Sequence record: EF120459.1
Strand: one strand, 5' to 3'
Length of the DNA stretch: 5,055 bases
Source of the DNA: Enterobacteria phage CL707
Each line of letters starts with the position of its first letter. Position 1 is the first letter of the stretch. Shown piece after piece: positions 1-1,318 of this stretch. The position numbers and the translations under genes were made by a program. Below the pieces are notes generated by a model. It searched no databases. It worked only from the letters and a program-made list of their open reading frames with translations, and was not told the DNA's origin.

Positions 1-1211
1 CCCTCATATTTCCCCAAAGCGTAACCATGTGTGAATAAATTTTGAGCTAGTAGGGTTGCAGCCACGAGTAAGTCTTCCCTTGTTATTGTGTAGCCAGAAT
101 GCCGCAAAACTTCCATGCCTAAGCGAACTGTTGAGAGTACGTTTCGATTTCTGACTGTGTTAGCCTGGAAGTGCTTGTCCCAACCTTGTTTCTGAGCATG
201 AACGCCCGCAAGCCAACATGTTAGTTGAAGCATCAGGGCGATTAGCAGCATGATATCAAAACGCTCTGAGCTGCTCGTTCGGCTATGGCGTAGGCCTAGT
301 CCGTAGGCAGGACTTTTCAAGTCTCGGAAGGTTTCTTCAATCTGCATTCGCTTCGAATAGATATTAACAAGTTGTTTGGGTGTTCGAATTTCAACAGGTA
401 AGTTAGTTGCTAGAACCCATGGCTCCTTTGCCGACGCTGAGTAGATTTTAGGTGACGGGTGGTGACAATGAGTCCGTGTCGAGCGCTGATTTTTTCGGCC
501 TTTAGAGCGAGATTTATACAATAGAATTTGGCATGAGATTGGATTGCTTTTAGTCAGCCTCTTATAGCCTAAAGTCTTTGAGTGACTAGATGACATATCA
601 TGTAAGTTGCTGATAGGTTTCCAGTTTTCCGCTCCTAGGTCTGCATATTGTACTTTTCCTCTTACTCGACTTAACCAGTACCAACCCAGCTTCTCAACGG
701 ATTTATACCATGGCACTTTAAAGCCAGCATCACTGACAATGAGCGGTGTGGTGTTACTCGGTAGAATGCTCGCAAGGTCGGCTAGAAATTGGTCATGAGC
801 TTTCTTTGAACATTGCTCTGAAAGCGGGAACGCTTTCTCATAAAGAGTAACAGAACGACCGTGTAGTGCGACTGAAGCTCGCAATACCATAAGTCGTTTT
901 TGCTCACGAATATCAGACCAGTCAACAAGTACAATGGGCATCGTATTGCCCGAACAGATAAAGCTAGCATGCCAACGGTATACAGCGAGTCGCTCTTTGT
1001 GGAGGTGACGATTACCTAACAATCGGTCGATTCGTTTGATGTTATGTTTTGTTCTCGCTTTGGTTGGCAGGTTACGGCCAAGTTCGGTAAGAGTGAGAGT
1101 TTTACAGTCAAGTAATGCGTGGCAAGCCAACGTTAAGCTGTTGAGTCGTTTTAAGTGTAATTCGGGGCAGAATTGGTAAAGAGAGTCGTGTAAAATATCG
1201 AGTTCGCACAT
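1..1211 (-). CDS. IS10 transposase, partial; the reading frame is open to the window edge
   Basis: Hand translation of the minus strand from the ATG at 1211..1209 gives MCELDILHDSLYQFCPELHLKRLNSLTLACHALLDCKTLTLTELGRNLPTKARTKHNIKRIDRLLGNRHLHKERLAVYRWHASFICSGNTMPIVLVDW...LLAQNLFTHGYALGKYEG with no stop before position 1. This matches the IS10 transposase as remembered. It is missing from the ORF track because no stop codon occurs inside the window. Confidence 0.9.
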   Translation of the reverse strand, partial: MCELDILHDSLYQFCPELHLKRLNSLTLACHALLDCKTLTLTELGRNLPTKARTKHNIKRIDRLLGNRHLHKERLAVYRWHASFICSGNTMPIVLVDWSDIREQKRLMVLRASVALHGRSVTLYEKAFPLSEQCSKKAHDQFLADLASILPSNTTPLIVSDAGFKVPWYKSVEKLGWYWLSRVRGKVQYADLGAENWKPISNLHDMSSSHSKTLGYKRLTKSNPISCQILLYKSRSKGRKNQRSTRTHCHHPSPKIYSASAKEPWVLATNLPVEIRTPKQLVNIYSKRMQIEETFRDLKSPAYGLGLRHSRTSSSERFDIMLLIALMLQLTCWLAGVHAQKQGWDKHFQANTVRNRNVLSTVRLGMEVLRHSGYTITREDLLVAATLLAQNLFTHGYALGKYE

Positions 1212-1273
1212 CTTGTTGTCTGATTATTGATTTTTCGCGAAACCATTTGATCATATGACAAGATGTGTATCCA
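1204..1273 (+). ncRNA. Predicted IS10 RNA-OUT antisense RNA (approximate coordinates), transcribed from pOUT toward the outside end and overlapping the transposase start
   Basis: Placed by analogy with established IS10 organisation, where RNA-OUT covers roughly bp 46-115 from the outside end. Here the outside end is at 1318 and the transposase ATG is at 1211. The ends were not determined from the sequence. Confidence 0.4.
1238..1260 (-). promoter_or_regulatory. IS10 pIN region with a Dam GATC site at 1249..1252
   Basis: GATC at 1249..1252 sits within catatgatcaaatgg, about 38 bp upstream of the transposase ATG. This is the position of the Dam-regulated pIN -10 region in IS10 according to established knowledge. 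Confidence 0.5.
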
Positions 1274-1280
1274 CCTTAAC

Positions 1281-1318
1281 TTAATGATTTTTACCAAAAT
1301 CATTAGGGGATTCATCAG
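1281..1318. repeat. IS10 outside-end terminal inverted repeat and flanking end sequence
   Basis: Direct sequence match (reverse complement) to the remembered IS10 outside end, CTGATGAATCCCCTAATGATTTTGG. Confidence 0.8.

Follow-up and report, generated by a model that had tools for sequence, protein, structure and literature searches.

The 5,055-nucleotide stretch of Enterobacteria phage CL707 analysed here (sequence record EF120459.1; 'the window' in the following) starts inside an IS10 element, and the question it raises is what lies behind that element: an early-left operon that simply resumes, the remainder of a Tn10 transposon, or a left arm that has been rearranged or lost. A sequence-only reading of the window had taken the insertion as a sign that the left arm is interrupted or deleted, leaving a defective prophage that keeps its immunity and cargo genes, unless the operon simply continues beyond the element; that the IS10 is one arm of Tn10 was regarded as equally possible. 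It will be argued here that an IS10-Right has transposed into the ral-ea10 spacer of a lambda-immunity lambdoid prophage, probably as a solitary, simple insertion, recent and private to the strain, which N-modified transcription would be able to cross. The features on which the argument draws are collected in table 1.

Table 1. Features on both sides of the IS10-prophage junction, with window positions
Feature	Position	Strand	Basis or remark
Partial inside-end terminal repeat	1..13	.	1-bp deletion between 8 and 9 (side-by-side comparison with L001)
IS10-Right element	1..1318	-	bases 11-1329 from inside end; first 10 bp outside window
IS10 transposase ORF	3..1211	-	ATG at 1211-1209; runs off window, stop lost
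RNA-OUT antisense RNA	1204..1273	+	Rfam RF00240, full length, 98.8 bits (gathering score 41), E 1.6e-20
Outside-end terminal inverted repeat, CTGATGAATCCCCTAATGATTTT (minus-strand reading; begins CTGATGAATCCCC...)	1296..1318	-	CH4794 alignment and homology break
Presumed 9-bp target site, TACACAGTG	1319..1327	.	consensus fit; in relatives directly preceded by GGAATGAA
Intrinsic terminator	1350..1379	-	7-bp GC-rich stem, loop with ORF147 stop codon, U-run; terminator scan
147-aa ORF (ORF147), first gene past N	1368-1811	-	stop codon 1368-1370
Antiterminator N, 108 aa	1820-2146	-	Pfam N36, E 1.5e-26
nutL boxB hairpin, GCCCTGAAGAAGGGC (minus-strand reading)	2319..2333	-	terminator scan; coincides with lambda's annotated NutL
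pL promoter: TTGACA, 17 bp spacer, GATACT	2390..2418	-	10/12 consensus positions

The IS10 copy

The element at 1-1318, on the minus strand, is an IS10-Right of the IS4 family, labelled in RefSeq as ISVsa5 type. Aligned with it, the IS10 copy of E. coli CH4794 (L001 16408-17726) agrees in 1318 of 1319 columns, with 0 mismatches and 1 gap, and the tetD-proximal arm of the Tn10 on plasmid NZ_CP029979 (L021 4298-2980) likewise shows 0 mismatches and one 1-bp gap, whereas the gltS-proximal arm of the same Tn10, IS10-Left, although of the same element family, differs at 17 positions (98.6% identity). The window copy is, therefore, of the autonomous IS10-Right type and not, given the 17 mismatches, of the left-arm type. 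With the IS10-Right of Tn10 it shares the outside-end repeat, RNA-OUT and transposase residues 1-401, the last being identical to those of the 402-aa reference WP_001339197.1 (as translated from L021), and the absence of any base substitution across 1,318 bp is consistent with a recent insertion.

The window opens at base 11 of the IS10 inside end, so that 10 bp (CTGAGAGATC) of a full-length copy of 1,329 bp fall outside it. What sets this copy apart from the IS10-Right of Tn10 is the deletion of 1 bp at inside-end position 18/19 (window 8/9), by which CATAATTT becomes CATATTT, residue L402 of the transposase is changed to Y (...GKL-stop to ...GKYE...) and the stop codon disappears, the ORF leaving the window without one. 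The 31-mer bearing this deletion occurs 0 times in genome_contigs (185,579 bacterial and archaeal species, each represented by a single genome) and metagenome_contigs (JGI metagenomes), and the change, located 8 bases from the window edge, is either a private mutation or a sequencing error; if it is real, the deletion and the lost stop codon make this a copy that is no longer pristine. The transposase is recognized by both Pfam DDE_Tnp_1 (E 1.5e-24, 87 bits) and NCBIfam transpos_IS4_2 (404 bits, cutoff 152).

IS10 reportedly carries two promoters, pIN and pOUT. As RNA-OUT lies on the plus strand, pOUT points to base 1318 and to the phage DNA, and the pOUT/RNA-OUT promoter thus fires back toward the phage genes. 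Read-out from pOUT would be antisense across ORF147 and N, converging on pL; because the 1360-1379 hairpin lacks a plus-strand T-run, no terminator faces such read-out.

The junction and the target site

The placement of the IS10 outside end against prophage DNA at 1318/1319, already proposed from the sequence, is borne out by comparison with uninterrupted relatives. The IS10 terminus is base 1318, homology with relatives breaks at 1318/1319, and the match begins at 1319 in 14 of 19 related prophage loci; in the rest it begins at a mosaic boundary (1321, 1323 or 1338). Among phages, 161 records match, and all among the matches listed start at query base 70, i.e. window 1319. The insertion corresponds to lambda 34035/34036, within the conserved stretch of non-coding DNA that separates ral from ea10, and lies, as proposed, in the early-left (pL) unit, downstream of N and ORF147. 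The distance to ORF147 has to be corrected from the 41 bp given previously: with the stop codon at 1368-1370, the gap is 49 bp (1319-1367).

In uninterrupted relatives, phage lambda included, the site reads ...CACTCGTTGGAATGAA, TACACAGTG and CAGTGTTTATTC... in direct succession, and the pre-insertion arrangement of GGAATGAA followed by TACACAGTG and CAGTG is found in 11 of 15 uninterrupted occurrences, lambda among them. For IS10 targets both a strict hot-spot consensus, NGCTNAGCN, and a relaxed one, 5'-NRCNNNGYN-3', are in use (quoted in PMC4574204). TACACAGTG fits the relaxed consensus at 4 of 4 specified positions, a fit that a random 9-mer would achieve with a chance of about 1/64, and the strict one at 3 of 6. 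Because the 9-mer at the outside end fits the target consensus, the junction looks, as far as its bases tell, like a primary transposition product and not like a secondary recombination joint.

The phage side of the junction

To the right of the IS, the terminator, ORF147, N, nutL and pL are all intact. The outside end of IS10 faces ORF147, N, nutL and pL, and the transposase ORF, ORF147 and N are all on the minus strand, so that the transposase gene reads along pL transcription, which agrees with the co-orientation described earlier. In the direction of pL transcription, the intact ORF147 terminator (centroid hairpin -10.9 kcal/mol) precedes the IS end by ~32 bp. The DNA of the N region is 86.9% identical to lambda 35104-35826, and the hairpin in table 1 that coincides with lambda's NutL matches the boxB sequence. 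Over cI and cro, DNA identity to lambda is 98.4%; at the protein level, a few residues of the window cI differ from lambda cI, and the two Cro proteins are the same. In uninterrupted relatives the early-left genes (ea10/cIII/kil/recombination/xis/int) are present, and the window itself stops inside the IS.

ORF147 has no match in Pfam, PHROGs, PADLOC or NCBIfam and is an uncharacterised moron. The exact protein is present in at least 55 assembly-index blocks, and the 10 places shown are downstream of a repressor/N region, within or adjoining the N-to-terminator cargo slot. The slot after N is occupied by Nmad5 in another prophage (L002) and by sieB/ral in lambda. In a further locus (L008, ~9931-10489) the terminator/spacer module that corresponds to window 1323-1376 is present twice, around two different cargo genes, and the doubled module suggests, from its arrangement, a recombination joint for cargo swapping after N.

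A second cargo gene, flanked by cI and pL, takes the place of lambda rexAB: the 301-aa product of 2643-3548 (minus strand) is the abortive-infection defence protein BstA (PADLOC BstA E 1.3e-105; PHROG 6287 E 6e-133), with no match in Pfam or NCBIfam. IS insertions recur across the 1890-4770 region of lambda-immunity prophages, with IS5 or IS1 found in the part matching 1890-4770 in two others from complete E. coli genomes (H25, H30).

Is the insertion found elsewhere?

The 1318/1319 junction is spanned by no record in 5,426 complete E. coli genomes (megablast with the junction region), and an exact scan for the junction 30-mer returned 0 occurrences in genome_contigs, viral_contigs (IMG/VR) and metagenome_contigs. 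Since the junction is missing from all four collections, the IS10 insertion is a private event of the source strain. The phage collection, similarly, has no record with the junction. The exact 108-aa N protein is encoded on only 9 indexed contigs, none with the IS, and none of the ORF147 places shown (10, from the 24 blocks whose contigs are longest) has IS10. The literature found on IS10 in lambdoid prophages consists only of laboratory-strain genome papers.

A single hit, that in CH4794, extends over 80% or more of the window. Its prophage (NZ_CM166349.1) has an IS10 of the same IS10R type and lambda immunity, with 98.6% identity over window 2285-4770, and the IS10 there is a simple insertion flanked by a 9-bp duplication, GGTAGGGCG; in contrast with the window copy, it sits on the pR side, where it disrupts the coding sequence of an O-like replication gene. 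As to the window apart from its IS, the modules of 1319-5055 (ORF147, the N allele, BstA, lambda-type cI/cro and the cII allele) are contiguous in none of the 5,426 complete E. coli genomes, where the best match to their combination amounts to 63% of the whole window.

How other IS10 copies are arranged

The frequency with which IS10 is found alone, as part of Tn10 or in rearranged form was estimated at two scales. With a 300-bp probe that covers the inside end of IS10R together with the tetD side of Tn10, IS10 inside ends were located at 4,909 places in 1,033 of the 5,426 complete E. coli genomes; the IS10R-tetD junction is present in 574 records from 559 genomes, i.e. at ~12% of the inside-end places. 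On a smaller scale, nine copies were inspected, namely eight chromosomal IS10R-type copies spread along the ranking and the CH4794 copy. Six of the nine are simple insertions with a perfect 9-bp duplication, one of them inside the replication gene of another prophage; the remaining three are a Tn10 right arm with tetD adjacent (L027), a copy truncated by IS26 (L024) and a pair of copies joined via an inversion in a laboratory-evolved strain (L029). In the last case (NZ_CP174268.1 3943885-3949203), two inverted IS10 are flanked by 9-mers that are swapped and reverse-complementary, and fragments of crl and of a porin gene are exchanged; this is an inversion brought about by IS10, and it illustrates the kind of rearrangement taken up below as an alternative. 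A sample of nine supports, roughly, proportions of 60-65% for simple solitary copies, 10-15% for Tn10 and ~20% for some rearrangement.

A probable solitary insertion, predicted to be crossed by N-modified transcription

The IS10-Right has transposed into the ral-ea10 spacer, probably in the form of a solitary, simple cut-and-paste insertion. Against this simple form stand the position of the left flank, which is outside the window, and the three of nine sampled copies that are not simple. The exact consequences of a simple insertion can be specified: a second TACACAGTG should be found past the inside end, right before CTGAGAGATC and after ...GGAATGAA, so that the left junction would read ...CACTCGTTGGAATGAATACACAGTG directly joined to CTGAGAGATCCCCTCATA..., and, beyond the IS, the rest of the spacer (...CACTCGTTGGAATGAA) and then the usual early-left genes should follow. 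The predicted left-junction 30-mer occurs 0 times in viral_contigs.

In the lysogen, with pL repressed, such an IS10 would be silent cargo. Because it is downstream of an intrinsic terminator, only N-antiterminated transcripts should reach it; upon induction, polymerase modified by N and loaded at nutL would pass the ORF147 terminator and, then, the 1.3-kb IS. N-modified polymerase is the classic suppressor of IS polarity, and, with N and nutL both present, a simple insertion should not silence the early-left genes, which would still be expressed downstream of the IS. Nor should induction mobilise IS10: the element reportedly blocks translation of transposase from read-in transcripts, and, since its ribosome-binding site is shielded in such transcripts, read-in would occur without transposase activation.

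The laboratory donors lambda cIII::Tn10 provide a known parallel, with Tn10/IS10 in the early-left unit downstream of N in phages that grow lytically, and show that insertions in the pL operon are tolerated. In those donors, however, the insertion was made in the laboratory and lies within cIII, and the phages carry deletions as well, whereas the window insertion is natural, lies upstream of the ea10 position, within the spacer, and belongs to a mosaic prophage in which BstA replaces rexAB. Most early-left genes are dispensable for lytic growth; xis and int are required for excision.

Other origins of the junction

The first alternative is that the IS10 marks a rearrangement by which early-left, integration or morphogenesis genes were lost or displaced: IS10 may have caused a deletion or inversion next to itself, two IS10 copies may have recombined, or a different IS may have truncated the element. 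IS10 promotes adjacent deletions and inversions, two of the nine sampled copies are rearranged (the IS26-cut L024 and the L029 inversion), and the 1-bp deletion at the inside end may indicate a copy in decay. The visible side is, however, complete, with an outside-end 9-mer that fits the consensus and an intergenic insertion that spares the ORF147 terminator; the majority of the sampled copies are simple, and the window offers no positive sign of a deletion. On balance, this explanation is rather unlikely. The locked-in defective prophage to which it would lead, keeping immunity, BstA and ORF147, is possible but not indicated.

A second alternative takes the IS10 as the right arm of a Tn10, either complete or partial, with tetD, tetC, tetA(B) and tetR past the window start, a second, inverted IS10 expected about 6.7 kb further on and, therefore, a 9.3-kb tetracycline-resistance transposon in the early-left operon. 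The copy is of the IS10-Right type, the arm whose inside end adjoins tetD, and its outside end abuts target DNA as that of Tn10 does; moreover, among the 1,033 complete E. coli genomes with an IS10 inside end, more than half (the 559 already mentioned) have the IS10R-tetD junction, and one sampled copy is such an arm. What was proposed earlier thus stands insofar as the copy could be a right arm, but not as an equal possibility: counted per copy, only 574 of the 4,909 inside ends join tetD, a solitary IS10 transposes far more often than composite Tn10, and nothing inside the window bears directly on the tet genes. The presence of Tn10 here is, accordingly, improbable. To deduce from the point at which the window ends how many IS10 copies there are, or whether Tn10 is present, was rejected as unfounded, the assembly method not being given.

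More elaborate, and highly improbable, is the idea that antisense transcription from pOUT, together with a left arm lost through the IS, could weaken induction and fix BstA and lambda immunity in the host as a step in prophage domestication, with the stop-less transposase fused to the flank. Finally, that the junction is not biological at all, but an assembly chimera of IS10 and prophage contigs or a hop of IS10 in a cloning host, is scarcely credible. In its favour, the copy departs from IS10-Right solely by a 1-bp indel, placed 8 bases from the edge, an error of the kind met at contig ends; none of the collections searched contains the junction, and laboratory strains such as EPI300 carry IS10. 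Against it, the break is base-exact at the IS terminus and followed by a consensus 9-mer, unlike a random chimera, and a hop in the cloning host would itself be genuine transposition.

Concluding remarks

The solitary IS10-Right insertion proposed here is an ordinary event, involving a known element with known behaviour. IS10 is abundant in E. coli and insertion sequences in prophages are routine, so that the insertion has little import beyond the annotation of the window genome. Its practical bearing is on what adjoins the repeat: a tet(B)/Tn10 may be present just outside the window, calls of prophage completeness depend on the sequence behind the IS10 repeat, and an exact, testable prediction of the left junction is now supplied. 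If the left arm should turn out to be deleted, the locus would be another case of IS-driven prophage decay in which the defence gene BstA is kept.
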